Positions 193 to 36,897 of a stretch of DNA of 64,000 nucleotides are shown here, piece after piece. Numbering within the stretch: the first letter of the stretch is position 1; the number at the start of each line of letters is the position of its first letter. The stretch is taken from positions 25,286 to 89,285 of IMG/VR virus record IMGVR_UViG_3300015608_002982; one strand, written 5' to 3'. A program made the translations under genes and the position numbers. The notes under the pieces were generated by a model. The model made no database searches and was not told the origin of the DNA. It worked only from the letters and a program-made list of their open reading frames with translations. Origin of the DNA: a virus (lineage: Duplodnaviria > Caudoviricetes).

Positions 193-201
193 TAATATAT
201 A
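193..201 (+). promoter_or_regulatory. TAATATATA phage (putative late) promoter motif
   Basis: Exact motif abutting start of CTS-like ORF 201. Confidence 0.55.
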
Positions 202-824
202 TGATTATGAGAAACATCAAAAAATACGAAGACTTCCTAAATGAAGAAGTCAATTTAAAGAAAGCTTTAACAACTGGTGCTTTAGCTGCTGGTATGATGT
301 TGAGTAATCCAGTTTATTCACAGACAAAAACAAATACAACAAAAACAGAGGAAACTTCTAAAAAAGACAACCTATATTACATATCAACATCTTCTAAATC
401 AGGTCTTAATGGACCTTACAATAAAGATCCTGTTAAAAATATTAAATTCGCAGTTACACCTTATGTTGTTGATACATTAGGTTTGAGTTTGGTAGAGTTA
501 GAAAAAATTTATTTAAAAGCTCTTGAGACTGCCAAGATAAAACTATTATTATCTAGTAGTTTAAAAGATAAAAAAACATTTGATTATAAATCAAATGAAA
601 ATGGTATTATTGGTGGTATAGTTTCAATTGAAGAACTTCGTAGACAAGGTCCTGAATTTAGTAGTGATAAAGATTTATACATATCTTTTAGTTTTACTTG
701 TGATGGTAATGAATATGTTGTTGGTATAGAATGTTATCTCTCTGCTGCAAAAAGTGGAAATATCCCCTATAATGCTATAGGTGTTACAAAGGTATGTTGT
801 GGTCCTTGGGAGCCATTTGAATAA
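201..824 (+). CDS. Putative virion internal protein: CTS-like N-terminus followed by a cryptic signal peptide
   Basis: Starts MRNIKKYEDFLNEE then VNLKKALTTGALAAGMMLSNPVYS-Q. Confidence 0.6.
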   Translation: MIMRNIKKYEDFLNEEVNLKKALTTGALAAGMMLSNPVYSQTKTNTTKTEETSKKDNLYYISTSSKSGLNGPYNKDPVKNIKFAVTPYVVDTLGLSLVELEKIYLKALETAKIKLLLSSSLKDKKTFDYKSNENGIIGGIVSIEELRRQGPEFSSDKDLYISFSFTCDGNEYVVGIECYLSAAKSGNIPYNAIGVTKVCCGPWEPFE

Positions 825-1226
825 CTACCACCTCTTTTCTGTATCTTTTGGTGTGTGTCCTATTTTACTTACTACTAACTCATAATAAGCATCATTTACT
901 CCAAAATCAGATGAATAGACATAAAGATTAAACTCTTTTAGGTGTTCATTTACATCACGAATTAACTCAAATATTTTTGGCTCAACGTAATGTAAGACCG
1001 GTAAGTCACTTGGAAAATCTATATCTTTATGATTAAAAACCACAATAAAACATTTGTCATCTTTTTCTACTAATGATGATTGTAGAGAATCTTCAACATA
1101 ATATTCTAGCGAAGGAAACTCATCAGTTATGTGATAAAGTATTTCGGATAAGTCTTGGTGTGTAATACCAAAATCATTTTTTAATGAAAATCCTTCAGTT
1201 ATAAATTGTGAGTATTTCTTTATCAT
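825..1226 (-). CDS. Putative virion internal protein (CTS-like N-terminus)
   Basis: MIKKYSQFITE start; DLSEILYHITDE module shared with neighbouring paralogues. Confidence 0.6.
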   Translation of the reverse strand: MIKKYSQFITEGFSLKNDFGITHQDLSEILYHITDEFPSLEYYVEDSLQSSLVEKDDKCFIVVFNHKDIDFPSDLPVLHYVEPKIFELIRDVNEHLKEFNLYVYSSDFGVNDAYYELVVSKIGHTPKDTEKRW

Positions 1227-1336
1227 TAAAACATTTTAATTGATTGTATAAAAGCTACTTGTAGTCTTATCCAAGCTCTTTTTCTCCAAGGAAGTTCCTT
1301 GAACTCTTTTGTTAAAAAAATATCTTCTAATTCCGT
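1226..1336 (-). CDS. Possible 36-aa peptide with non-canonical ACG start
   Basis: Open frame (T)ELEDIFLTKEFKELPWRKRAWIRLQVAFIQSIKMF, TAATG-coupled to ORF 825..1226, AAATATATA at 1342-1350 upstream. Confidence 0.3.
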   Translation of the reverse strand, partial: TELEDIFLTKEFKELPWRKRAWIRLQVAFIQSIKMF

Positions 1337-1351
1337 AGTTCTATATATTTA

Positions 1352-1383
1352 TTTGTATATTTTACTTATTTACCTTATATTTG
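1352..1383 (+). promoter_or_regulatory. Bacteroidota housekeeping-sigma promoter (-33 TTTG / -7 TAnnTTTG)
   Basis: TTTG 1352-1355, 20-nt spacer, TATATTTG 1376-1383; ATG at 1403. Confidence 0.75.
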
Positions 1384-1402
1384 TATTCTAAATCACTACA
1401 AA

Positions 1403-1855
1403 ATGGAAGGTCGTAAACTTAAAAACTCAGATGCTCTCAAATTTATGTTTGCTGGTAAATCAATTTTTACTTTTCTGAATACTCAGTCTGGTAACCGATT
1501 TACTTTTAAGATTAAAGCCGCTAAAGATTCTAACCTTTTCTTTGTTAGTGTTCTTACACGACCTGATACATATACTTATATTGGAACTTGCATTGAAGGT
1601 AACTTCAAGCACGGTCGTAAATCCTCAATCTCAGAAGATGCTCAAAGTGTAAAAGTTTTTCAATATGTTTTAAGTAAACTAAAGGCTGGTAATTTAGCTG
1701 AGTTTATTGAGGTTTGGCACGAAGGTCATTGTGGTAAATGTGGTAAACGATTGACTGTACCTTCTTCTATTGAGAATGGTTTGGGACCAGAGTGTATTAA
1801 AACTCTTTCAAAGATGGAAAAAAGAGATAAATTTTTACAATTAATTTTGGGATAA
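1403..1855 (+). CDS. DUF6011-like zinc-finger protein with C-terminal RxxK/FLxxIL tag
   Basis: CGKCGKRLTVPSSIENGLGPEC motif; ends KRDKFLQLILG. Confidence 0.7.
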   Translation: MEGRKLKNSDALKFMFAGKSIFTFLNTQSGNRFTFKIKAAKDSNLFFVSVLTRPDTYTYIGTCIEGNFKHGRKSSISEDAQSVKVFQYVLSKLKAGNLAEFIEVWHEGHCGKCGKRLTVPSSIENGLGPECIKTLSKMEKRDKFLQLILG

Positions 1856-1856
1856 T

Positions 1857-2405
1857 ATGAGTGCTTTTATTAGTATATTAGTTTCTTTAACTCCTTTTAT
1901 TTTTATCATTTATTACTTTAGAATGATAAAAACAACAAAGTACATTTCTACCGACCTCCAAAGTGGTCAACGTTGTTATTCATGTAAACAAGATATTGAG
2001 ATTGATAGTGATGAACTTCTTGATATATTAGTACATAATAAAACTAACTATCGTCTGTGTAAATCTTGTCTTCGTGATGAAAAACTTGATAATCTAATTA
2101 ATAAAAACAAATCATCAAAGTTTCATAAACTAAAACTTTTACTTGTTAGTAAAGATTTTGATAAAATATCTAAAATCTTAATAGGGTCTATGGTCTTTTT
2201 ACTTTGTGTTGACTTATTATTAAAGATGTTATTTGATGTAAAGTGGTTTTCTTACTTCTATAACGCTTTTTTAGCTTGTTATTGGTCAATTATGATTTAT
2301 AGACATAAAGTTATTTCAATAAAAAACCCTCAGAATAATCTGAGGGTTTTAGGGCCGACCGGAATTAACACGGTTCAGTTTCCACCAACTTATTTTTCTA
2401 AATAA
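1857..2405 (+). CDS. Membrane protein with CxxC...CxxC zinc finger and internal RDEKLDNLI tag
   Basis: Hydrophobic N-terminus and two C-terminal hydrophobic segments; CYSC/CKSC; the last about 25 codons run through a terminator hairpin. Confidence 0.55.
   Translation: MSAFISILVSLTPFIFIIYYFRMIKTTKYISTDLQSGQRCYSCKQDIEIDSDELLDILVHNKTNYRLCKSCLRDEKLDNLINKNKSSKFHKLKLLLVSKDFDKISKILIGSMVFLLCVDLLLKMLFDVKWFSYFYNAFLACYWSIMIYRHKVISIKNPQNNLRVLGPTGINTVQFPPTYFSK
2323..2350. terminator. Bidirectional intrinsic terminator
   Basis: Perfect 12-bp stem AAAACCCTCAGA-ATAA-TCTGAGGGTTTT between convergent genes. Confidence 0.7.
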
Positions 2406-2608
2406 GTAAACTTATTCTTTTCAATGTAGTTTATTATACCACGGATGAAAAGCTCTTTAATTACAGACTCACAGGTATATGTTTTGTCGTAATAAAATTC
2501 TATGTTATTTCTAACATTTTCCATTCCAACTTTATATAAAACTTCCAAAGGAAAGTTTTTATTTTCCACATTTCTTTCTAAAAGAAGTTCTTTAACTATG
2601 TGTATCAT
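2390..2608 (-). CDS. Hypothetical protein
   Basis: 72-aa ORF in the recA-direction operon. Confidence 0.5.
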   Translation of the reverse strand: MIHIVKELLLERNVENKNFPLEVLYKVGMENVRNNIEFYYDKTYTCESVIKELFIRGIINYIEKNKFTYLEK

Positions 2609-2627
2609 TAGAATGGATTATTTTTTA

Positions 2628-2804
2628 TTACTTGCTTGCTTTACCTTCTTCTGTAGATGCTGCTCTATAAGGAGTAACTAATTTCTTAATTTCACCTAAA
2701 GCTTTACGAGCTCTAGCATCTGAAACTTTACTTGTAGCTGTGTGGTTTTTTTCAAACTCAGCCCAAAGTTGTTTTAATTGTTCAAAAATTTCATTCTTGT
2801 TCAT
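2628..2804 (-). CDS. Histone H1-like Hc1-family small basic protein (58 aa)
   Basis: Manual translation MNKNEIFEQLKQLWAEFEKNHTATSKVSDARARKALGEIKKLVTPYRAASTEEGKASK; K-x4-RxR-x7-K-x4-YRxxS spacing matches the Hc1 N-terminal domain; missing from ORF track. Confidence 0.65.
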   Translation of the reverse strand: MNKNEIFEQLKQLWAEFEKNHTATSKVSDARARKALGEIKKLVTPYRAASTEEGKASK

Positions 2805-2853
2805 TTTATTTACATTTTATTTTTATAACCTCTTAGTATTAAAGAGGTTTTAA

Positions 2854-4083
2854 TTATCCAAAAATATCATCAGCATCAGAGGCATCAGTGAATCCGTTTG
2901 AATCATCTTCATCACTTCCTATCATTTCATTAAACTGACTTTCTACTTTGTCCATTTCATCAATTGATTTGAAACGGAAGTAGTCATTAACAATTGGTGC
3001 CATTTTTTCTAAAACTTCTTGTGTAAAGATTTCAGAATTAAAAAGTTGTTTTGTGGTCACAGTTTTATCAAGGTGTGATACATACCATCTGTTTCCACCT
3101 GGTGTAAATTTCATCTCACCTGTTGATTTATCAACTTCCATTTTACCCTGAGCAATACCAATTTGTTCAAAAAATTCTGGACGACAAAAAGCATCTAAGC
3201 CAGTATAAGGATTTAGACCATTTAAAAAAGATATATCAAATCTAATTTTCTTAGGTTTAGCTAAACGATTCTTTTGAGTTTTGAAGAGAACAGATATACC
3301 TGACTGACCTAAGTCCATATCATCTTCTTCACCAGTTTTTAATTTAGATTTAGAAAGAAAACCTAAAACACTTGCGGAATAAACTAGACCCATCCCACCC
3401 TTGCTAATCTCTTTTGGATAGAGATCTTGTGTTAGATATGTATGATTGCAGCATACCATAGGAATATCTAAATAACCTAAATCAGAACTAATACTTCTGA
3501 AAAGAGCATTTAATTGTTTTGCTCTTGTCATATCTTGTTTAATATCCCCTTTTAGTAAGTCCGCCTTTTCTTTATTAGAAGACATCATACCAATTGAATC
3601 TAGTACAATTAAAATTTTTGGAATTTCATATCCACCCATTTTAGCCTCTTTTAACTCATCTAATAACTGAGTTAATGAGATATTGATATCTTCAACTTTG
3701 TTTGATCTTATTAATCTAAATTTATCAGTGCTATTATCAATACCCATTTTAGTGATACCCTCTAAATCAATAGAGTTTTCTGTATCAATGTAGATTACAG
3801 AGTATCCATCTTTTTGTGCCGACTTACAAATAGAGTAAGCGATAAATGATTTACCTGCCCCTGATTCACCTAATAGACCAAAAATACGACCTGCTAAAAT
3901 ACCACCACCAACTAATTTAGCAGATAAGGCAGCATCTAGTAAATAAACACCGGTAGAGATGTAACTCCTTTCTTTGATTTCTTTTTCAATTTGAATTGGA
4001 ACGGATTTAGCGATATTATCTAAAATTGTTCCTACTTTACTAAATTCAAACTTCTTTGTTTCTTTTCCTGTTGTTTTTGCCAT
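2854..4083 (-). CDS. recA: RecA/UvsX-like recombinase
   Basis: ISTGVYLLD, Walker A GESGAGKS, YIDTE, Walker B LIVLDSIG, MTRAK, NHTY, SGG-like KGGMG, KNR motifs. Confidence 0.93.
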   Translation of the reverse strand: MAKTTGKETKKFEFSKVGTILDNIAKSVPIQIEKEIKERSYISTGVYLLDAALSAKLVGGGILAGRIFGLLGESGAGKSFIAYSICKSAQKDGYSVIYIDTENSIDLEGITKMGIDNSTDKFRLIRSNKVEDINISLTQLLDELKEAKMGGYEIPKILIVLDSIGMMSSNKEKADLLKGDIKQDMTRAKQLNALFRSISSDLGYLDIPMVCCNHTYLTQDLYPKEISKGGMGLVYSASVLGFLSKSKLKTGEEDDMDLGQSGISVLFKTQKNRLAKPKKIRFDISFLNGLNPYTGLDAFCRPEFFEQIGIAQGKMEVDKSTGEMKFTPGGNRWYVSHLDKTVTTKQLFNSEIFTQEVLEKMAPIVNDYFRFKSIDEMDKVESQFNEMIGSDEDDSNGFTDASDADDIFG

Positions 4084-4107
4084 TTTAATAATTTTTATTT
4101 TATAATT

Positions 4108-4116
4108 TATATATTA
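4108..4116 (-). promoter_or_regulatory. TAATATATA phage promoter motif (recA)
   Basis: Exact motif about 25 nt upstream of recA ATG. Confidence 0.55.
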
Positions 4117-4187
4117 ATAATGAATTCTCCCCTTTTAACTTTTTTATAAATTTTCACCATATTTTTCTTAAAGGAGGAAATATAATT

Positions 4188-4196
4188 TAATATATA
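4188..4196 (+). promoter_or_regulatory. TAATATATA phage promoter motif
   Basis: 4 nt upstream of ATG 4201. Confidence 0.55.
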
Positions 4197-4200
4197 GTAT

Positions 4201-5271
4201 ATGACTAAATATGAATTTTTAGAAAAGGCGAGAGAAAAACATGGATATAAGTATCAATATCCTAATCTAAAAGATAAGATATTATCAACTGATGATATAG
4301 ATATAGTTTATAATGGCGTTTTGTATAAACAAAAGGTTGTTAAACATATCCTACTAGGTAGATGTCCTGAAAAAAACACACCTGCTAAAACAACTGAGCA
4401 GTTTATTAAGGAAGCAAAGCAAGTTTGGGGTGATAAATATGACTACTCGTTGACCGAGTATAAAGGTGCATTAAAAAAATTAAAAATTATATATGATGGT
4501 ATTATATTTGAACAGACTGCCTCAAGTCACCTTAAATATGCACCAGAGTTAAGAATGAATAAAGAATATTTTATAAAGCTTGCTAAGTATAAATGGGGTG
4601 ATAGGTATGATTACTCACTAGTTGAATATACGGATTGTAAATCAAAGGTAAAAATAGTTCTTAAAGAGACGAATGAATTATTTGAACAGACACCGTTTAA
4701 TCATTTACAATATTCACCAGAAAATATAAATAAAAGAAAATCAACAGAACAATTTATTAATGAATCAAACGCAGTTCATGATTTTAGGTATAACTATGAT
4801 AAATCTGACTATATTTCTAATCAAACAAAAGTTACAATAACTTGCCCGGTTCATGGTGACTTTACACAGAGACCTTTATCACATATACAAGGGAATGGAT
4901 GTCCAAATTGTAATGAATCTAAAGGAGAAAAAGAAATAGCTAAGTTTTTAGATAAATATAATATTTTCTACGAGAGACAAAAAAAATTTCATGATTGTCG
5001 TAATATATTTGAACTGCCTTTTGACTTTTACATACCAAGTGCTAGAACCTGTATAGAGTTTGATGGAAAACAACACTTTCAACCTATGAAGTTTTTTGGA
5101 GGATTAAAAGCATATGAATCTCTTAAAATAAATGATAAAATAAAAGAGAATTATTGTGAGGATAATTACATAAATCTTATAAGGATAAGATACGATCAGT
5201 TTGATGAAATTTACCAGATATTGTGGAATAATTTAAAGAACTTGATAGTTCTTAACAATAAAATCAACTAA
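4201..5271 (+). mobile_element. Free-standing homing-endonuclease-like gene: DUF723-like repeats plus C-terminal PD-(D/E)XK nuclease
   Basis: Four FIxxAKxxWGDKYDYS-type repeats, CPVHG...GCPNC, FDFYIP...IEFDGKQH; lone plus-strand gene in a minus-strand block. Confidence 0.75.
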
Positions 5272-5856
5272 TTCATCGCAGAATTTTTGTATATCTGCTT
5301 TCATATCATCTGTGATTTCAAATGATTCTTTCATGTATTGAGATAAAAACTTAACCTTATCAAAGTCTCTATCATCAAGAGCTTGGTCAATAAGTGCGTT
5401 TATTTCAGACTTAGACATATCTTCATAGTCTTTTTCTTTAGCTTGCTTCCATTCTTCACCTTCGGATTCTGCTGACTTTTTAATAGCTTCTAAAAATTCT
5501 ACAAAGAAATCAAGTGACTTATCAAGTCCTTCCTTAAATGATTTTTCAATAAATATTGATTTTGAGTTTTTTAATGATTTATCAAATTTTTCAAGAACTA
5601 AGTCTTTAAATTCTTCAGATAAATCAGGATTAGAATTTACAGATTGAACAAACATATTAAACAAAAGCTCAATTAAGCTATCAGCTCCTTCACTTAGGTT
5701 TTCAACATCACCAGTCATTCTTATATTTTTCTCCATAGAAAAAATAGGTTCTAACATAGCATAAAGTGATAATTTAAGATTTTCAAGCTTTCTCTTGAAA
5801 TCATCATCATCTTTAATACCTTCTAAAAATAGTTTATATGTTTTAATTCTTTTCAT
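5233..5856 (-). CDS. Putative virion internal protein (CTS-like N-terminus)
   Basis: MKRIKTYKLFLE start; acidic helical protein. Confidence 0.6.
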   Translation of the reverse strand: MKRIKTYKLFLEGIKDDDDFKRKLENLKLSLYAMLEPIFSMEKNIRMTGDVENLSEGADSLIELLFNMFVQSVNSNPDLSEEFKDLVLEKFDKSLKNSKSIFIEKSFKEGLDKSLDFFVEFLEAIKKSAESEGEEWKQAKEKDYEDMSKSEINALIDQALDDRDFDKVKFLSQYMKESFEITDDMKADIQKFCDELVDFIVKNYQVL

Positions 5857-5858
5857 AA

Positions 5859-6083
5859 TTATTCTTCTGGTTTTCCAGGTATTTCTAAATATTGGTCTAA
5901 AACTTCTTTAGTTTCAATATCTGATTCATCGTATTTTACTTCATCATCATATAAACTTACCTTCTTATCAGAAATAAGTTTTTGTAAAAGAGGTTCTTGA
6001 TTAAATAAACCAACTTCTTCATCACTAAGTTTTATAGTCTTTGTGTGTGATTCTTTAATGAAATCTGCGTACTTCTTTATCAT
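5859..6083 (-). CDS. Small putative virion internal protein (CTS-like N-terminus)
   Basis: MIKKYADFIKE start. Confidence 0.6.
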   Translation of the reverse strand: MIKKYADFIKESHTKTIKLSDEEVGLFNQEPLLQKLISDKKVSLYDDEVKYDESDIETKEVLDQYLEIPGKPEE

Positions 6084-6840
6084 AATCTGCTGTTGTTTGT
6101 GGTTTTATTTTATAATATAATATAACTGCCAATATTAAGATATTAGTAGCATAGTTTAATAATAATGGTAAATCTAATTTATCATACACATAAGCAAGTG
6201 CGAATATTTCACCAAATGCCCAAAGTAAAACAAATCCCCATGAAATACCATATGAGTGTTTGTCTTTGAATGATTGCCAAGCCTGTGGAAGACCACATAT
6301 AGCTAAACATATAGAACCTAACCAACCAAGTATTTCAAAAATTGACATACCTTTTGTTTGTTCTGATATACCGGCTGATGATAACTCAGATAAGTCTTTT
6401 TGTTCAATTTTATAATTATACTTAGATTCAACGTGACTAGATAGTCTATCAAATAATTCTTTATATTCTTCTTGACTACCTGATTCTAATTTACTTTGAA
6501 TCTCTTGTAATATATTACTTAACTCTACATCTTTTGGTGTAAGTTCTGTTTTTCTAATATCTGATAATTCAATTACTTGATTCTTTGCAACAACTACACC
6601 GTCTTTAGCCATTGGATTTGTTAGCTCAGTTTTTATGGGAACTTGTGCTTGTAAGTTTGGAGAACTTGCTAATAAAGAAGCACCAAGTGTCGCACCAAGT
6701 ATTCCTTTTTTCAAATCAAGTTCTTCTTTTACTTTAGTAACTTTTACTTTAGGATCTGGCATCCAACCAAAAGTCTTTTTAGAAGGTTTTGGATTAAAAT
6801 TGGACTTAATGAATTGATTATATGTTTTAATATTTTTCAT
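6055..6840 (-). CDS. CTS-like protein with internal signal peptide and C-terminal PQ-loop (SemiSWEET-like) membrane domain
   Basis: MKNIKTYNQFIK; LKKGILGATLGASLLASSPNLQA-Q; GWLGSICLAICGLPQAWQSFKDKHSYGISWGF with three TM helices. Confidence 0.7.
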   Translation of the reverse strand: MKNIKTYNQFIKSNFNPKPSKKTFGWMPDPKVKVTKVKEELDLKKGILGATLGASLLASSPNLQAQVPIKTELTNPMAKDGVVVAKNQVIELSDIRKTELTPKDVELSNILQEIQSKLESGSQEEYKELFDRLSSHVESKYNYKIEQKDLSELSSAGISEQTKGMSIFEILGWLGSICLAICGLPQAWQSFKDKHSYGISWGFVLLWAFGEIFALAYVYDKLDLPLLLNYATNILILAVILYYKIKPQTTADYDKEVRRFH

Positions 6841-6845
6841 TATGA

Positions 6846-6854
6846 TATATATTA
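6846..6854 (-). promoter_or_regulatory. TAATATATA phage promoter motif
   Basis: 5 nt upstream of ATG 6840, overlapping the previous stop codon. Confidence 0.55.
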
Positions 6855-7751
6855 ATTTGATTTAACAGTTTTTCCAAACCAATTTGAACTTGTTATAAAC
6901 ATCTCACAAAAAGATATTTTATAATCAATTGGATTCATCTCATCATCCATTATCCAACCTTTGTAAAATCTAATTTTATCCATTCTATTATTATGACTTT
7001 TTTCAGGTATGTATATCTCTACACTATATCCTTTATCTGTCATAAAATCTTGTATTCTTTCTAAAGTTTCTTTTATATCATATATATTGAATGGTGACCT
7101 ATAGCCTTTTCTAAAATCATCAATAGTTACTTTAATTTTAATTTCACCTCTTTTAAAAGAAGGTATTTCATCAGCTTTAGTTCTAAAACCAATATCATTT
7201 AGTTCTAAGCAAATATCTCTTATCTCTTGAACCTCTGGTTCTTCTTCAATTAATGATTCCTCAACCGGTTCATCTTCAATTAAATCAGCCGCCTTATTAA
7301 TATTAACTTTAATTCTTTCAATTCTTCTGGCTTCCTTGTCATTTTCATATACTGACTTAACTAACTCAGCTAATTGTTTAAGAATCTTTGGCTTTGCTTT
7401 ACAATTTTCCGGTTCACCTTCACATATAACATTTAAGCCATAAAACTCTTTATCACTATATCTTGCTAACTTTTTACTAATTAAAAGATCTTGAGATTGT
7501 TCATCAAATCCATTTCCTCTCAATGAAATAACAGACCATAATTTAATAGGTGTATCTTCAAAATCAACTATCCATTTATCAATTTCAAAGTTATTTCCCT
7601 CTCTATTTCCAGGATCATAAGTTATCTTATATGGTGAAATACCTTTAACCTTTTTTAGACGAGCAATATACTCTAAAGCAATCTCATCATCGGCTGATGG
7701 TTTGCTTTTGAAAAGGTCAAAAAATCCTTCATATGTTTTAAGACTTCTCAC
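6852..7751 (-). CDS. Putative virion internal protein, paralogue of 8236..9048
   Basis: GTG start MRSLKTYEGFFDLF; shares DDxIxL...RLxKVK..PYxI and RIERIxxxINxxADLI with 8236..9048. Confidence 0.6.
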   Translation of the reverse strand: MRSLKTYEGFFDLFKSKPSADDEIALEYIARLKKVKGISPYKITYDPGNREGNNFEIDKWIVDFEDTPIKLWSVISLRGNGFDEQSQDLLISKKLARYSDKEFYGLNVICEGEPENCKAKPKILKQLAELVKSVYENDKEARRIERIKVNINKAADLIEDEPVEESLIEEEPEVQEIRDICLELNDIGFRTKADEIPSFKRGEIKIKVTIDDFRKGYRSPFNIYDIKETLERIQDFMTDKGYSVEIYIPEKSHNNRMDKIRFYKGWIMDDEMNPIDYKISFCEMFITSSNWFGKTVKSN

Positions 7752-8239
7752 TATTTTGGTAGTTTTATTTTTATTGTAATATTTCTTTTTCTATTAGGTG
7801 AATCTGTTTTACTTATTGTTTTGCCAATCATTGTCATAAATTCTGACCACTCTTTATCACTGGAACTACCTTCATCAAACCCCCAACCAATAAAAAATGA
7901 CATCTTACAATTATAAATTTCTAATTTAGATTTACAATCTAATAATAGCTCATTTACTTCATTGTCCGATATTGAATTAGGTGAGTAAGTCATTTCAAAT
8001 GATATTGCTGATTTATTACCTGAGAAATTAAAGTCTCCAATTTTATGATTTGATACTTCTGATTTTCCCCAAATAACATCATCTGATGCAAAAATACCAC
8101 CTAGTATATTACCTTTCTCAATTCTTGACTCGTCAATAATATCATATAAACATTCAATAATATCGTTATATGTTACTTCAACTTTTTCCTTTTTTTTGAA
8201 AAGGTCAAAAAATCCTTCGTATGTTTTTAAGTTTTTCAT
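7751..8239 (-). CDS. Putative virion internal protein (CTS-like N-terminus)
   Basis: MKNLKTYEGFFDLF start, near-identical to neighbour. Confidence 0.6.
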   Translation of the reverse strand: MKNLKTYEGFFDLFKKKEKVEVTYNDIIECLYDIIDESRIEKGNILGGIFASDDVIWGKSEVSNHKIGDFNFSGNKSAISFEMTYSPNSISDNEVNELLLDCKSKLEIYNCKMSFFIGWGFDEGSSSDKEWSEFMTMIGKTISKTDSPNRKRNITIKIKLPK

Positions 8240-9048
8240 TTGAATTTATTAGGAAAGATGTGTCTCCATTCATGTCCTTGAGGAACATCAGATGTTTTTA
8301 CACCAAATATCTTTTTTTCTGGACAAGTATCTTTACCGTCCATTAAGAAGTTGTTATTACAAGCCCAAACTTCAACATTTCTTTGTAATAATTGACCAAC
8401 TGAAAAAGGAAATCTAATACCAGTTTCATTTTCAATATTAGTAATTCTACCATCCGGTGATTTAGTTACAACTATTTCCAATCTTGGGTTTCTTTTATTA
8501 GTGAATTTAACTTCTCTTTCGTGTAATCCTTCATCAATTAAGTCCGCTGATGGATTAATTTCAGTTTGTATTCTTTCAATTCTTTTTCTTTCTCTATCCT
8601 CATTATAGATTTTATCTACTAATTGAAATAATTTTTTACGATAAGATTCTTTGGATCTAATTCTCTCAGCTAATCCTGAGTTATTACCAATAAAAAATTT
8701 CCAAGGATTTTTACACTTTTCATAGCCAACCATTACTCCGTTTTGATTAACTAAAGTGTGTCTATCATTTGATATTACAATGTCAACATCATCAAATCTA
8801 ACTAAATATATTTTACTGAAATATTCAGTTTCTTCGTTATTTCTATGATCTGGTGTTGGATCGCCTACAAATTTACTCATCCAAGATGGTAGTTGGGCAG
8901 CGGTATTCATTATCTCATCTATCTGATAAGGATTTCTGTCTTTAACTTTTTCAAGACGGTGTATAATATCTAGTGTGATTTTATCATCACCGGTATCTTT
9001 CTTAAAATAATCTAAGAAACCTTCGTTATATTTCTTTAAGTGTTTCAT
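8236..9048 (-). CDS. Putative virion internal protein, paralogue of 6852..7751
   Basis: MKHLKKYNEGFLDYF start; shared N-terminal half. Confidence 0.6.
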   Translation of the reverse strand: MKHLKKYNEGFLDYFKKDTGDDKITLDIIHRLEKVKDRNPYQIDEIMNTAAQLPSWMSKFVGDPTPDHRNNEETEYFSKIYLVRFDDVDIVISNDRHTLVNQNGVMVGYEKCKNPWKFFIGNNSGLAERIRSKESYRKKLFQLVDKIYNEDRERKRIERIQTEINPSADLIDEGLHEREVKFTNKRNPRLEIVVTKSPDGRITNIENETGIRFPFSVGQLLQRNVEVWACNNNFLMDGKDTCPEKKIFGVKTSDVPQGHEWRHIFPNKFK

Positions 9049-9056
9049 TATACTAT

Positions 9057-9515
9057 TTATTTATTTTCAATTATCATGAAATCAAACTCGCCATTTTTAT
9101 GAGTTGATAATAAAAAGAAATAACCCATAGACTCAATTCTATATTGAACATCTTTAGTTATTTCAAAAAATTTATATAAATTATTATTTGGTACACCAAA
9201 TACTCTTTGATTATCACCTCTTTGTATATCGGTTGCAAAGTAACCATCTTTAAAAAATTCACTAAAAGAAACTTGAATTCCTTTATGAAGATTTGGTTGG
9301 CTTTCCCAATAGTTAGCCGGAATGTTGACAAATCCTTTAGTCAATTCATTACCAACTGGCATGAAATCTTGACCATCAAAAATCTTAAATGCTTTATATT
9401 TCAATGTATATTTAGCGTCACATTCTACATACTCAGATAAAATGTCGTGGAGTATTGATTCGTCAGAGAAAATATCTTCTTCGTTTGATTCATTGAATTT
9501 TTTTAAGTGTTTCAT
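9057..9515 (-). CDS. Putative virion internal protein (CTS-like N-terminus)
   Basis: MKHLKKFNE; start refined to ATG 9515. Confidence 0.6.
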   Translation of the reverse strand: MKHLKKFNESNEEDIFSDESILHDILSEYVECDAKYTLKYKAFKIFDGQDFMPVGNELTKGFVNIPANYWESQPNLHKGIQVSFSEFFKDGYFATDIQRGDNQRVFGVPNNNLYKFFEITKDVQYRIESMGYFFLLSTHKNGEFDFMIIENK

Positions 9516-9521
9516 TAACAC

Positions 9522-24700: not shown

Positions 24701-25922
24701 AATCAATAATATCTGAGGATTTTATGATTTCATCAGGAGCATTAAAAATTTTAGAATTTGGTACATTATGACTAACTTTGTAACTCCTTCCAATCTTATC
24801 TATTATTACAACTTCACATATCATATCATTATACCAATATTCTATAAGAACTCTATCTCCTATTTTATAAAACTCGTTTCTCTCAATTAAATATTTTAAC
24901 TTTTCATTTTCATTTTTCTCTTCTATGACTTTCATATGTGAAGTAAATTCTTTTAATAAGCCCAAATAGTGTAATTTATTATAAATATTTTTTTGTTCTT
25001 TAATAAACTTTGAATAATCATTATACTTTAGACAGATATTTTTGATTTTATCAATATCAAATAGATTTTTAAAAACATTTTCTTTTTTTATTTTAAATTT
25101 GTCTATATCTTCTTTTGTAATTTTTGTATTTAAGTAAAAATTCATATCATCAAGGCTTTGTTTAATTTGATTTTTTATATTAATAATATATGATTCGAAT
25201 CCCCTTCTTGTTAAATTTGTTTCTCTTATTGTTATTAATTTTATATTTTTAGCTTTACAAATATTATCCTTTATAGATGATATATCATGATAGTATGAAC
25301 CATCATACTCAATTCCCATATTATAATTTTTAAAATAAATATCAATTTCATATGGTCTAATTGCTTCTCTGTCATTATAATTAAAGTCTCTATTGAATAT
25401 TTTAACAATTTCTGATAATATCAACTGGGGTGTGCTATAAGATATATTCATCATATGTTTGCTAACATCCTTGATTTTACCATTTTTATATAACCAAGCA
25501 TATAGATTGGGATCAGCTAATCTTAATTCCGATTTTGTTATATACTTTAAACATTCCTTTTCAATATATTCTTTATTATATTTTCTATCTCTTTTAATAT
25601 CTAACCTACCAAACATAGATACAATCGAATCTATACTTCTATTTAGTGATACTGAAAGTTCTTTATTATCTAAAGTATTTATATTATCTACTAAAAAGTT
25701 AATATCATCTTTAGTCCATGTTTTTTCTTTCCATCTTTTATTAATTACTCTATCTTTATTTATTTGACTGATATAATCACTATTTTTTTTAAGATTTAAT
25801 TTCAATGACTTAGAATTAATTGATAATAGGCTTTTATTCAAATAATTAGATATTTCTTTATTTGACATCTTACTGTGGTTTTTTATTAAAAAATCAACTT
25901 CTTCTTTTGTCCATTTATTCAT
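24690..25922 (-). mobile_element. Free-standing PD-(D/E)XK endonuclease with Myb/SANT-like repeats and an extra C-terminal SH3-like module
   Basis: KWTKEEV / TWTKDDI repeats; YEIDIY...GIEYDGSYYH; tail YKIGDRVLIEYWYN. Confidence 0.7.
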
Positions 25923-26942: not shown

Positions 26943-29876
26943 TTATAAGTCTTTTTGTTCAGATCTATATTTATCGTATCTATTTGCTATTTCAACTAAG
27001 AATTTATTTCTAACTATATCTTCGTTTGTAAATTCATGCATATATAAATCATTCATTCCGTCTACCATCTTTATAAAGTCATTATATCCTGAGTCTCTTC
27101 TTTTAACATCATATTGTGATGTATCTCCCATCATTACTGCTTTTGAATCCTTACCTAAACGAGTTACCCATAACATAAGTTGTTTAATTGAAGCATTTTG
27201 GCAGTTATGAACCAATATATTTTCAACAAAATAATTGTGATTACCATCAACCTCTATGTTATATACATAATCTGGTTCAGAATCTTCAATATTTACAATC
27301 TCGGTTGTTGATAAATTTTTGTTATATGATATTCTATATAAACTATTATCAAAATTATTAGTATCACTATTCAATTTATAAGACATTGATGGGTGTATAT
27401 ATTTTGATATAATATCAAACATTTTTAAAGAGTTAATTCTATTTAAACATAGTATTACACCTTTTGATGTTTTATAAATACTACTATCTAAACTGAATTT
27501 ATTTTTCAATATTTTAGATAATACATTGACTTCCTCGTAACTCATGGAATTGGTTGAGAATGTTACAGACCCACTTGATTTTGAAATAGATCCATCATCC
27601 ATATACCATATAGCTAAAGTTCTTTCTGTGAACCATCTACTTATCTCACTACTTATGAACTTCTTAGACCCATTATACATAGAGTTATAAAACTCATTTG
27701 ATATATTTATAGATTTTGTTTGAAATCCACACTGCTCTTCACCTGTATATCCAGACTTTAAAGAATTTCTATATGATGATATTTCACCAAAAATATTTTT
27801 TTTGAAATTCATATAGTCATATTGTTTAATAGAATGATTTGTTAGTATTCTATATGACTTTTTAACTTGCTTATTTTGTAGTAATGATGAATCACCCAGA
27901 CACATTCCTAAAATTATATCATATGAGTCATTTGTAATAATTGTGGAATCATTTGTGTTATAGCCTTTATACCTACATATACTATCACCTATGTTTAAGT
28001 TGTCAACTTCAATCCATTTAATTTCTCCATCTTTAAATATCGCAAATGGATGATTTTTTGTTGTCTTTATAGGTTTTATTCTATCCTTTGTATATATTTT
28101 AGTGATATTTTTTATACCATTTTCAAAAACTCCAGTTACTTTTCTATTTTCTAAAATTTTCATATCTTCATTCCAACTAGAAACATACACATCTTTACCT
28201 AATTTAAACATATTAACGATATCTTTTATTCTAAGATAATTAAAAGATCCTCTAGTTCCATGTTTTGTAACAACCCTTGTGTCACCCGTGAAACACTCAT
28301 CTAACAACATTATGCAATTGTCATAAGTTGATCCTCTCATGTAAGCTAAAGGTTCAAAACAAATTTCTTCAGTAGCAAACAAAAAGTCAATTGTTGGTTT
28401 TCCCAAAATTTTACAAAATGTTGTGTAATATGATTGTTTGTATGGATCTATTTTTTCTGCAATGTTACCAGGAAGTGCTCCTAAGTTTTCACCACTTTCC
28501 TGAATTGGCTTAGTGATAATGATTTTTTCTATTTTTTTATCAGCTAATAATGCTAGAGCTGTGTAACAGGTTGTATATGTATTGTGTGTTACAATATAAT
28601 CATTTGTCAAATAGAGATGAGATGGATTATCCACACTAATACACTGAGCTTTCTTTTTACCAATTAGTTTAGCAGATACTATATATCTAGTTGGTTTATA
28701 TTTTGACTTTGGTTTTACTAATTTAAATTTTCTATTTAATGAAAATGGATTTATTTCCGAATTCATTTTTATAGTTATTTTATATGACGTTTTTCCATAT
28801 ATTTTTTCACCAGATTTAATATAGTAACTATCTGATGGAGTGTGATCTGTTGCAACTCCACCTAGTGATTGAACCAACTCTTTAACATCATTGATTAATC
28901 TTTTGGATGTTGATGAGAAGCTTACAAAGGTACCATCTTTAGATACAGATCCGTCCGAATCCATCAGTCCTCTTAATATAGATATTCTATTTTCTATAGA
29001 ATTGAATTTATAACAATCCGGGATAAATTTTTCTTGTGAGAGTTTATTCCAAAGTCCTATTTTAGTTAAATATTGTTTAATTTTGTTTTCTCTTACTTCG
29101 GGTTCTTTTACCAATGAGTAGTCATAACAACCTCTATAAATTACAGAAATTTCTTCATCAATTAAATTTTCAATACGTTCTACTATCTCTAAATCAGATG
29201 TCGTGAAATTAACACTTCCTCTAAAACATCCATCTCCAATTAGGAATCCCATAATATATGGATCTATGTCTACTTTTATTTCGTTAAATTGAACAGGCTT
29301 TGTAATAGGAATTGTGTGGTTTATCCTACCTCTTTTAGTATAGAGTGTTTCTATAATTTCCGAAGTTGATTTAACACTTCCTTCCTTTTCATCTTTATGT
29401 CTACTTCTTTTACCATTTATGGTTTTAGTCCATTTCCTATTATTTCTATCACTTTCGGTTTGAGTAAACCATAAATGGTCACCACAGCACTCTACTTTAG
29501 AACTATCAGAAAAAGTTAGCTCCCAAATATCTTTTTCACCTTGTGGATAAACTCCCGTGACAATTGTTGGTAAGCCATCAACAGAGATAACTCTATCACC
29601 TATTTGTATTTCACCCATCTTAACCCAACCATTTGGTGTTAAAATTGGTGAATCTAATGGTTGGGCTTTGCTTGTCCCGGCTGGCCCATGAACTACTGAC
29701 AAAATATTGTTTCTTATTCCTTTGTATAAGAGTTGTTGTTTATCAGATAAATGTACATTTGATTTTTGAAATTCCTCTTTAGTTAAAGAGTTCTTTTTTC
29801 TAAGATTCTTTTTGTATTCAAATTCTTGAATTCCGTCCTGAATCTGACCGTTAAGTTCGCTTTTGTACTTGCTCAT
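26943..29876 (-). CDS. phoH: PhoH-family ATPase interrupted by two inteins (spliced product about 251 aa)
   Basis: GPAGTSK|T, ITKP..ESGENLGALPG, EPLAYMRG, LLDE|CQN, LWVTRLG, GDTSQYD. Confidence 0.93.
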   Translation of the reverse strand: MSKYKSELNGQIQDGIQEFEYKKNLRKKNSLTKEEFQKSNVHLSDKQQLLYKGIRNNILSVVHGPAGTSKAQPLDSPILTPNGWVKMGEIQIGDRVISVDGLPTIVTGVYPQGEKDIWELTFSDSSKVECCGDHLWFTQTESDRNNRKWTKTINGKRSRHKDEKEGSVKSTSEIIETLYTKRGRINHTIPITKPVQFNEIKVDIDPYIMGFLIGDGCFRGSVNFTTSDLEIVERIENLIDEEISVIYRGCYDYSLVKEPEVRENKIKQYLTKIGLWNKLSQEKFIPDCYKFNSIENRISILRGLMDSDGSVSKDGTFVSFSSTSKRLINDVKELVQSLGGVATDHTPSDSYYIKSGEKIYGKTSYKITIKMNSEINPFSLNRKFKLVKPKSKYKPTRYIVSAKLIGKKKAQCISVDNPSHLYLTNDYIVTHNTYTTCYTALALLADKKIEKIIITKPIQESGENLGALPGNIAEKIDPYKQSYYTTFCKILGKPTIDFLFATEEICFEPLAYMRGSTYDNCIMLLDECFTGDTRVVTKHGTRGSFNYLRIKDIVNMFKLGKDVYVSSWNEDMKILENRKVTGVFENGIKNITKIYTKDRIKPIKTTKNHPFAIFKDGEIKWIEVDNLNIGDSICRYKGYNTNDSTIITNDSYDIILGMCLGDSSLLQNKQVKKSYRILTNHSIKQYDYMNFKKNIFGEISSYRNSLKSGYTGEEQCGFQTKSINISNEFYNSMYNGSKKFISSEISRWFTERTLAIWYMDDGSISKSSGSVTFSTNSMSYEEVNVLSKILKNKFSLDSSIYKTSKGVILCLNRINSLKMFDIISKYIHPSMSYKLNSDTNNFDNSLYRISYNKNLSTTEIVNIEDSEPDYVYNIEVDGNHNYFVENILVHNCQNASIKQLMLWVTRLGKDSKAVMMGDTSQYDVKRRDSGYNDFIKMVDGMNDLYMHEFTNEDIVRNKFLVEIANRYDKYRSEQKDL
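27204..28295 (-). mobile_element. Class 1 intein with LAGLIDADG endonuclease at Walker B of PhoH (364 aa)
   Basis: CFTGDT start, TTKNHPF block B, ILGMCLGDS and IWYMDDGS, ends VHN followed by C. Confidence 0.92.
28581..29666 (-). mobile_element. Class 3 intein with LAGLIDADG endonuclease in the P-loop of PhoH (362 aa)
   Basis: Ala1 (AQPLDS), DHLW, AQCISV, VTHN followed by T (WCT triplet); MGFLIGDG and LRGLMDSDG. Confidence 0.9.
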
Positions 29877-36531: not shown

Positions 36532-36897
36532 ATGATTAAGAAATATCTTCAATTTATAAAAGAAGCTGATGAGCCTGTAAAAGATAATAATAAATATACA
36601 GAGCTTAAAGAAGAAATCAAATCAATGATTGAAAAAACTATCGAGAAGAGTGGTGGTGAGTATAAATCATTTGTAGATAAGTTTATTAAGTCACCTGATG
36701 ATGTTAAGATAGAGGGTCTTATAAATGATTCAGATATATATGACTTCTATCTTAAATTTAGAAATGATATAGATGAATTGCTTAATGATATTAAGTACTT
36801 TGATGAAGTTCCAAGCGAGTCTAATACTTTTGGACTATATGACTATATCATAAATGGCACAGAGAAAGCAATTATAGAGGCTGTTAAACTTTTATAA
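36532..36897 (+). CDS. Putative virion internal protein (CTS-like N-terminus)
   Basis: MIKKYLQFIKE; TAATATATA at 36519-36527. Confidence 0.6.
   Translation: MIKKYLQFIKEADEPVKDNNKYTELKEEIKSMIEKTIEKSGGEYKSFVDKFIKSPDDVKIEGLINDSDIYDFYLKFRNDIDELLNDIKYFDEVPSESNTFGLYDYIINGTEKAIIEAVKLL

Follow-up and report, generated by a model that had tools for sequence, protein, structure and literature searches.

Two genes in the stretch of viral DNA studied here encode proteins that begin with the same kind of two-part presequence. Judged by its motifs, this presequence appears to be a tag in which a T4-like leader is joined to a secretion signal, and it is carried by dozens of unrelated, predicted late phage proteins. 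The window, as we call the whole 64,000-nucleotide (nt) stretch (Caudoviricetes; IMG/VR record IMGVR_UViG_3300015608_002982, positions 25,286 to 89,285), is the final 64 kb of an 89-kb contig and has a G+C content of 28%. Its RecA/UvsX-like protein is 72–76% identical to homologues in two uncultured phages, LR745206 and LR756502 (635 and 642 kb); by the same protein, the Lak phages of Prevotella are more distant relatives. Genes in these relatives are the longest open reading frames (ORFs), as called in this analysis. The two tagged genes of the window, ORF 207 and ORF 6055, had been singled out in an initial annotation. It proposed that a prohead protease removes a capsid-targeting leader inside the capsid and thereby unmasks a signal peptide that serves in the next host.

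ORF 207 (207–824, + strand) encodes a 205-residue tagged, predicted secreted protein. Its leader N-domain (residues 1–19; 207–263) ends in Glu-Glu plus V-N-L-K-K and is followed by an uncharged Ala/Gly-rich core and then N-P-V-Y-S (residues 20–38, core and c-region; 264–320). Signal peptidase I is predicted to cut after Ser38, so that the mature cargo (321–821) would begin at Gln39 (codon 321–323). This order of leader, Glu-Glu, signal-like stretch and Gln is as originally described, but the gene probably does not start at 201. Translation almost certainly begins at the ATG at 207, because the ATG at 201 falls inside a late-promoter-like motif of the TAATATATA type (193–201, + strand, 5 nt upstream of ATG 207) and the homologues P0001 and P0002 begin at the second Met. 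AlphaFold2 models leader and core as a single helix (residues 7–32; predicted local distance difference test score, pLDDT, 82–95), with low confidence over the cargo part. The cargo has no match in Pfam, PHROGs or NCBIfam and no usable match in the Atlas, and its four Cys are kept in its sole cargo homologue. The product is probably a soluble, disulphide-bonded periplasmic protein.

The distribution of the presequence indicates that it is a unit in its own right. Residues 1–40 of ORF 207, compared by phmmer with 1.84 billion representative proteins, matched 63 clusters at E <= 1e-3, every match being N-terminal and the proteins 35–479 residues long. Across 50 aligned module bearers Phe10, Glu13 and Glu14 are invariant, and Met1, Lys5, Tyr7, Asn12, Asn16, Lys19 and Pro35 are nearly so; beyond the module these proteins do not align, and their cargo parts form 17 BLAST groups. 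ORF 207 and P0123, for example, are 82% identical over residues 1–39 and unrelated from residue 40. Homology thus ends right after Gln, which places the module boundary at the predicted cleavage site plus its Gln. On these alignments, the presequence shared by both ORFs is not a chance resemblance; it is a portable, phage-specific module. The module pattern is absent from 185,579 species representatives of bacteria and archaea and was found at 25 loci in viral and metagenome contigs. IMG/VR holds one module locus, and LR756502 provides the sole match, a partial one, among deposited phages.

Tagged genes also vary in what follows the leader. Further ones in LR756502 comprise one whose peptidase I site precedes Gln, one with a lipobox-like site and two with apparently uncut glycine-zipper helices. 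The last two are related to each other (95990–96634, L045:990–1634; 544849–545472, L068:12849–13472): the leader is followed by the glycine-zipper helix and then by acidic residues, there is no small-x-small or other cleavage site, and their cargo has no family match. The short metagenome contigs L076 and L084 each carry two different tagged genes, in the combination peptidase I plus lipobox or with two lipoboxes, which shows that tagged genes can be grouped in pairs or small arrays.

The hydrophobic half of the module looks like a substrate of the host export machinery. Both ORFs and the 63 clusters have Lys-Lys or Arg-Lys before an uncharged core of 13–15 residues. A peptidase I type site follows in 58 of the 63 clusters; among these, position -3 is Ala, Ser or Val in 52, position -1 is Ser, Ala or Gly in 53, position -2 is variable and Gln stands at +1 in 47. 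Pro at -5, a helix breaker in the c-region, is nearly invariant. The remaining 5 of 63 have a lipobox and then Cys, a type that recurs behind the same leader at 10 of 25 DNA loci and is absent from ORF 207 and ORF 6055 themselves. That a single leader precedes sites for two different host cleavage systems would be difficult to account for if the segment did not enter the Sec pathway. A twin-arginine translocation signal was considered and rejected, as the basic pair is Lys-Lys, Arg-Lys or Lys-Arg, never Arg-Arg, across the 63 clusters. No ESPR, YSIRK or KxYKxGKxW motif was detected by Pfam (both ORFs and 50 bearers) or NCBIfam (both ORFs and six others), and scans of module bearers found no muralytic domain.

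Domain searches of the cargo with Pfam and other collections returned TonB_C and Hint domains and a weak match to Por_Secre_tail, the type IX secretion tail. The largest cargo groups, that of P0126 and P0129 (13 clusters) and that of P0147 and P0168 (16 clusters), have a TonB C-terminal or a C-terminal Hint domain. TonB-dependent outer-membrane receptors are common phage receptors in Bacteroidota, and a secreted TonB_C domain could interfere with them.

The host of these phages is a member of the Bacteroidota, because classical secreted proteins of LR745206 and LR756502 have Gln at +1, the Bacteroidota-type promoter box TAnnTTTG lies upstream of some classical signal-peptide genes in these relatives, and the cargo includes the weak type IX tail match. 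The Q-rule, by which exported proteins of Bacteroidota have Gln at +1 (PMC5837995), is thus applicable. The initial annotation invoked this rule, and the Gln at +1 of both ORFs and of most peptidase I type clusters bears it out. Its claim that the stretches are Sec signals is likewise upheld: the small residues at -3 and -1, the lipobox-Cys variants, the periplasmic type of cargo and the N-out SemiSWEET-like domain of ORF 6055 make a solid case that the hydrophobic stretch is, by prediction, a genuine Sec-type signal.

ORF 6055 (6055–6840, - strand) encodes a tagged membrane protein of 261 residues whose C-terminal part is a SemiSWEET/PQ-loop domain, and a late-promoter-like motif (6846–6854, - strand) lies 5 nt upstream of its ATG at 6840. 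The usual Glu at the leader end is missing: the leader N-domain (residues 1–13; 6802–6840) has Ile-Lys-Ser where the leader normally ends in hydrophobic-x-Glu. A conserved basic insert follows (residues 14–40; 6721–6801), ending in Lys-Glu-Glu, so that Val-Lys-Glu-Glu is reached only 27 residues further on. The signal-peptide-like stretch (residues 41–65; 6646–6720) consists of L-D-L-K-K, an Ala/Gly/Ser-rich core and P-N-L-Q-A, with Gly49, Ser55 and Pro61 invariant, and precedes Gln66 (6643–6645), the predicted +1 residue. The KVKEE sequence, the signal-like stretch and the Gln that had been noticed are thus all in place, but the Glu-Glu closes a 27-residue insert and not the leader itself. 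The insert is absent from a widespread 232-residue form of the family, in which the leader directly precedes the core, and the LR756502 homologue bears an ORF 207-type module. We found 357 homologues and read the N-termini of the 120 that were listed. Among these the leader, the core and the small-x-small|Gln site are kept while position -2 varies, and +1 is Gln in nearly all and His or Glu in a few.

The C-terminal part of ORF 6055 bears on the orientation of the whole protein. PF04193 (PQ-loop) matches residues 168–218 (6187–6339) at E 9.1e-12, with 45 bits against a cut-off of 22. NF037968 aligns over model positions 1–75 of 76 at E 8.8e-8, with 32 bits, below its cut-off of 80. The SemiSWEET-like three-helix domain (residues 172–246; 6103–6327) thus spans 75 residues that align with the whole model, and it shares with SemiSWEETs the basic loop that links helices 1 and 2; in SemiSWEETs that loop is cytoplasmic and the N-terminus periplasmic (PMC4260346). 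Unlike a SemiSWEET, ORF 6055 first has the bipartite presequence and about 100 residues of predicted periplasmic domain, and its NCBIfam score falls short of the cut-off. With the basic loop and a basic tail inside, the N-terminus of the domain would be periplasmic; the roughly 100 residues before it would then cross the membrane, and the preceding hydrophobic stretch would be the export signal. The AlphaFold2 model (pLDDT 44.6) is too poor to judge helix packing. ORF 6055 belongs to a run of eight consecutive leader-bearing genes (5233–9521, - strand), within which the start of ORF 5859–6083 overlaps its end by 29 nt.

The leader half is distributed far more widely than the complete module. 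A motif score assigns it to 17 of the 101 genes here; in the two relatives the counts are 84 of 892 and 87 of 930 (about 9%). Most leader-bearing proteins have no hydrophobic segment. Among 20 distinct module DNAs, the proportion of synonymous differences (pS) is 0.90, which is saturated, and that of non-synonymous differences (pN) in the leader is 0.17; pN/pS is 0.19 in the leader versus 0.70 in the core. Synonymous codon use at conserved leader positions equals the genome average. Because pN is low while pS is saturated, the leader acts as a peptide, and no other part of the module is as constrained.

What kind of peptide it may be is suggested by T4, whose capsid targeting sequence is MKTYQEFIAE (10.1101/2021.01.19.427310). 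The leader resembles this sequence, at motif level only, as an extreme N-terminal tag on unrelated proteins. Its end is Leu-Asn-Glu-Glu in ORF 207, and P3 in module bearers is also Thr, Cys or Asn. As in T4 capsid targeting (IPI–III and Alt; gp21), a short N-terminal tag of the form basic-Tyr-x-acidic-Phe-[ILV]-x-Glu stands on unrelated proteins (10.1101/2021.01.19.427310; PMC5694885), expression is predicted to be late, and the relatives have a T4-type head module whose protease looks Glu-specific. Unlike in T4, a Sec or lipoprotein signal follows the tag immediately, and each genome has some 85 leader genes.

Both relatives encode a late sigma factor, a portal, a major head protein and a head maturation protease. 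The protease of LR745206 and LR756502 matches phrog_207 at E 4e-30, with PF03420 below its cut-off; a T4-type prohead protease was not found on the 89-kb contig, which has no head module and is only part of a genome. In each relative this protease forms one fusion protein with a scaffold-like region (LR745206 198546–200669, L015:8546–10669; LR756502 225272–227368), in which an 11-residue unit recurs about ten times, every copy containing Tyr-x-Glu-Tyr-[IL]-Ala-Glu, so that many candidate self-cleavage sites stand in a row. The protease domain takes up roughly the first 265 residues of a 707-residue protein. The [IL]-A-E repeats fit a protease that would cut after hydrophobic-x-Glu. We rejected the idea that the leader is a copy of a scaffold repeat, as the leader profile misses the scaffold protein at E <= 10 and the likeness is at motif level only. 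Charge was considered as a sign of DNA-bound internal proteins and proved uninformative: T4 internal proteins are basic, and the leader proteins here are acidic (median isoelectric point 5.1). No virion-protein annotation was found for leader-bearing neighbours. Overall, a capsid-targeting role for the leader, as the initial annotation proposed, is plausible. The T4-like tag, the late genes and the T4-type protease of the relatives speak for it, and the ORF 6055 leader, which lacks the hydrophobic-x-Glu end, speaks against it.

Promoter motifs give the tagged genes a predicted place in the infection cycle. In LR745206, the portal, protease and major head genes are preceded by motifs of the same type, and we therefore read the motif as the late promoter of the clade. 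Counting occurrences no more than 45 nt from the start, 5 of the 7 tagged genes in the three genomes have it, as do 14 of the 25 additional loci, which gives a total of 19 of 32 (binomial P = 3e-6 versus a 21% background). Of the leader genes, 53 of 95 have the motif, compared with 382 of 1,790 other genes and just 1 of the 31 genes with classical signal peptides. The host-type box has a different distribution, with 8 of the 31 classical genes, 6 of the 95 leader genes and none of the 7 tagged genes. Classical signal-peptide genes, with Leu/Ile/Phe-rich signals, often lie behind a TAnnTTTG box (for example LR745206 298054 and LR756502 54211 and 581827), and are probably expressed early by the host polymerase. 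By their promoters, the tagged genes appear to be late genes, as the two-step addressing of the initial annotation requires. The motif ends 4–6 nt before the ATG in tagged and leader genes, compared with 18–38 nt upstream at head and fibre genes, a spacing that suggests leaderless late mRNAs. It also occurs upstream of many other genes in the window, such as those at 36532, 43657, 20405, 40631 and 57066. The cores of the two classes differ as well: mean hydropathy is 1.57 in tagged versus 2.69 in classical signals and Ala plus Gly make up 54% versus 7%, where the tagged cores are related by descent and are not independent samples.

Which cell exports the cargo, the producer or the next host, is a question on which the data are compatible with both answers. 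We give about an even chance to direct export from the producing cell late in infection, with the leader as a selected extension of the signal peptide. In either cell, the hydrophobic half is in all likelihood read by host Sec and cut by signal peptidase I, exposing Gln as on other exported Bacteroidota proteins, or in sister genes cut by the lipoprotein peptidase instead; Sec entry and cleavage would therefore leave the cargo in the periplasm, in a membrane or at the cell surface. With export from the producing cell, the leader would be discarded together with the signal peptide. ORF 6055 would be inserted with its leader in the cytoplasm, followed by the periplasmic domain and the three-helix domain, and is possibly a late lysis or transport protein. 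We prefer direct export because signal peptides tolerate long conserved extensions, because leader and core are modelled as one helix and not a hairpin, because a three-helix protein such as ORF 6055 should insert while it is being made, and because we know of no injected protein that is exported by Sec afterwards, which also counts against two-step addressing. The specific idea that the signal must be unmasked is not supported, as AlphaFold2 gives a continuous helix through leader and core and a signal peptide needs no free N-terminus. A leader helix that folds back over the core was also considered, and the straight helix of the model led us to reject it.

Extended signal peptides of bacteria offer a comparison for direct export. 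GspB has a glycine-rich signal core and uses an accessory Sec system, and ESPR occurs in autotransporters. Conserved N-terminal motifs are known on other long signal peptides, those of YSIRK/GS proteins and the 90-residue signal of GspB, and these systems, together with ESPR, resemble the module in placing such a motif ahead of an otherwise canonical signal peptide; the motifs alter routing or kinetics, not cargo (PMC3297441). Unlike them, the module is encoded by phages, in Bacteroidota, and its N-terminal motif also occurs on proteins without a signal peptide.

Several observations weigh against export from the producing cell. The function of the leader is probably not specific to export, because constraint within the module is strongest in the leader (0.19 versus 0.70), which also stands on many proteins lacking an export signal. 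Producer-cell export predicts neither the late motif at 19 of 32 tagged genes versus 1 of 31 classical ones nor the weak, Ala/Gly-rich cores, and it does not account for the role of the leader on an exported protein. Two-step addressing, which we regard as possible but rather improbable, would explain these features. The leader would take the precursor into the prohead, and the protease would cut after Glu or Glu-Glu and expose a signal peptide of 24–25 residues for export in the next host. The further course is equally tentative: the precursor would be ejected, probably unfolded, exported post-translationally by SecA/SecYEG, and cut before Gln or lipidated. This scheme predicts strong peptide-level selection on the leader of exported proteins, which producer-cell export does not, as well as late expression alongside the head genes, unlike that of classical signal-peptide genes; weak Ala/Gly-rich cores would evade co-translational capture. 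The MKTYQEFIAE-like leader with its hydrophobic-x-Glu end, and relatives whose head maturation protease is fused to an [IL]-A-E repeat scaffold, are also as it would have them. A partial precedent is gp47 of the Salmonella giant phage SPN3US, a head/ejection protein from which a prohead protease removes a propeptide at a Glu site, so that the mature form, proposed to act on the membrane of the next host, starts with a predicted transmembrane helix (PMC5694885). Unlike the module, gp47 is a single protein with a propeptide of 79–111 residues; it lacks both a signal peptidase site and a lipobox and does not follow the Gln rule. Against two-step addressing stand the three strongly hydrophobic helices of ORF 6055, which should enter the membrane during synthesis and fit poorly inside a capsid, and the lack of a hydrophobic-x-Glu leader ending in ORF 6055 and its 232-residue relatives. 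The leader profile also misses the scaffold repeats, and some 85 leader genes per genome would make a very large cargo set. Periplasmic and lipoprotein precursors might conceivably be packed, trimmed to bare signal precursors and placed in the envelope of the next host before any phage gene is expressed, although we doubt it. It is no more probable that the placing agents of such pre-made envelope effectors would be the Sec, signal peptidase, lipoprotein and possibly type IX machinery of that host.

It is quite unlikely that the stretch in ORF 6055, and those in LR756502 95990 and 544849, are uncut, permanent first helices that keep the leader exposed at the cytoplasmic side of the inner membrane. 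Similarly small is the chance that a leader so displayed binds the prohead core or another partner, for example tethering assembly to the membrane until the protease cuts. T4 proheads do assemble on the membrane and are freed after proteolysis (PMC5694885), the two glycine-zipper proteins of LR756502 have acidic residues and no small-x-small site after the helix, and the 45-residue cytoplasmic part of ORF 6055, insert included, is highly conserved. On the other hand, the ORF 6055 family keeps small-x-small|Gln while -2 varies, and a clear peptidase I site or lipobox can be seen in most bearers. Gly/Ala-rich, weak N-terminal helices that sit in or leave the membrane are also found in the signal-arrest-release (SAR) domains of phage endolysins and of the T4 antiholin RI. 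SAR domains resemble the tagged proteins as weakly hydrophobic helices of this composition on late phage proteins, the glycine-zipper pair of LR756502 being similar; unlike the module, they are uncut, have no conserved leader ahead and serve lysis enzymes. Least probable by far is that the leader reflects something at the level of RNA or recombination in leaderless late transcripts, with no role for the peptide itself, or that an internal start makes the signal N-terminal. The short distance from promoter motif to ATG, with its probably leaderless mRNAs, and a TTG at Leu43 of ORF 6055 that could start a classical signal peptide are compatible with this. However, average codon use and the contrast of pS 0.90 with pN 0.17 led us to reject an RNA-level or translation-enhancer role. 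The codons at the leader/core junction of ORF 207 are GTC, AAT and TTA, with no start codon among them, and most module bearers have Ile there; the TTG of ORF 6055 is thus not general among bearers, and we rejected internal starts as a general explanation.

Elsewhere in the window, a 977-residue PhoH-like ATPase (26943–29876, - strand) is apparently split twice by intein-like inserts with homing-endonuclease-like parts, as read by eye from its translation.

Looking across the analysis, the exported proteins of these huge phages seem to fall into two classes, a classical one that is not tied to the late promoter and a bipartite-tagged one behind it. The tag is a natural test of T4-like leaders: these may not address proteins to the capsid after all, or else capsid cargo may carry working secretion signals. 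If the latter is true, envelope proteins would be delivered ready-made, which would be a new route of host take-over. The module would also make a compact, portable export tag for Bacteroidota, the two halves of which can be separated in reporter fusions.

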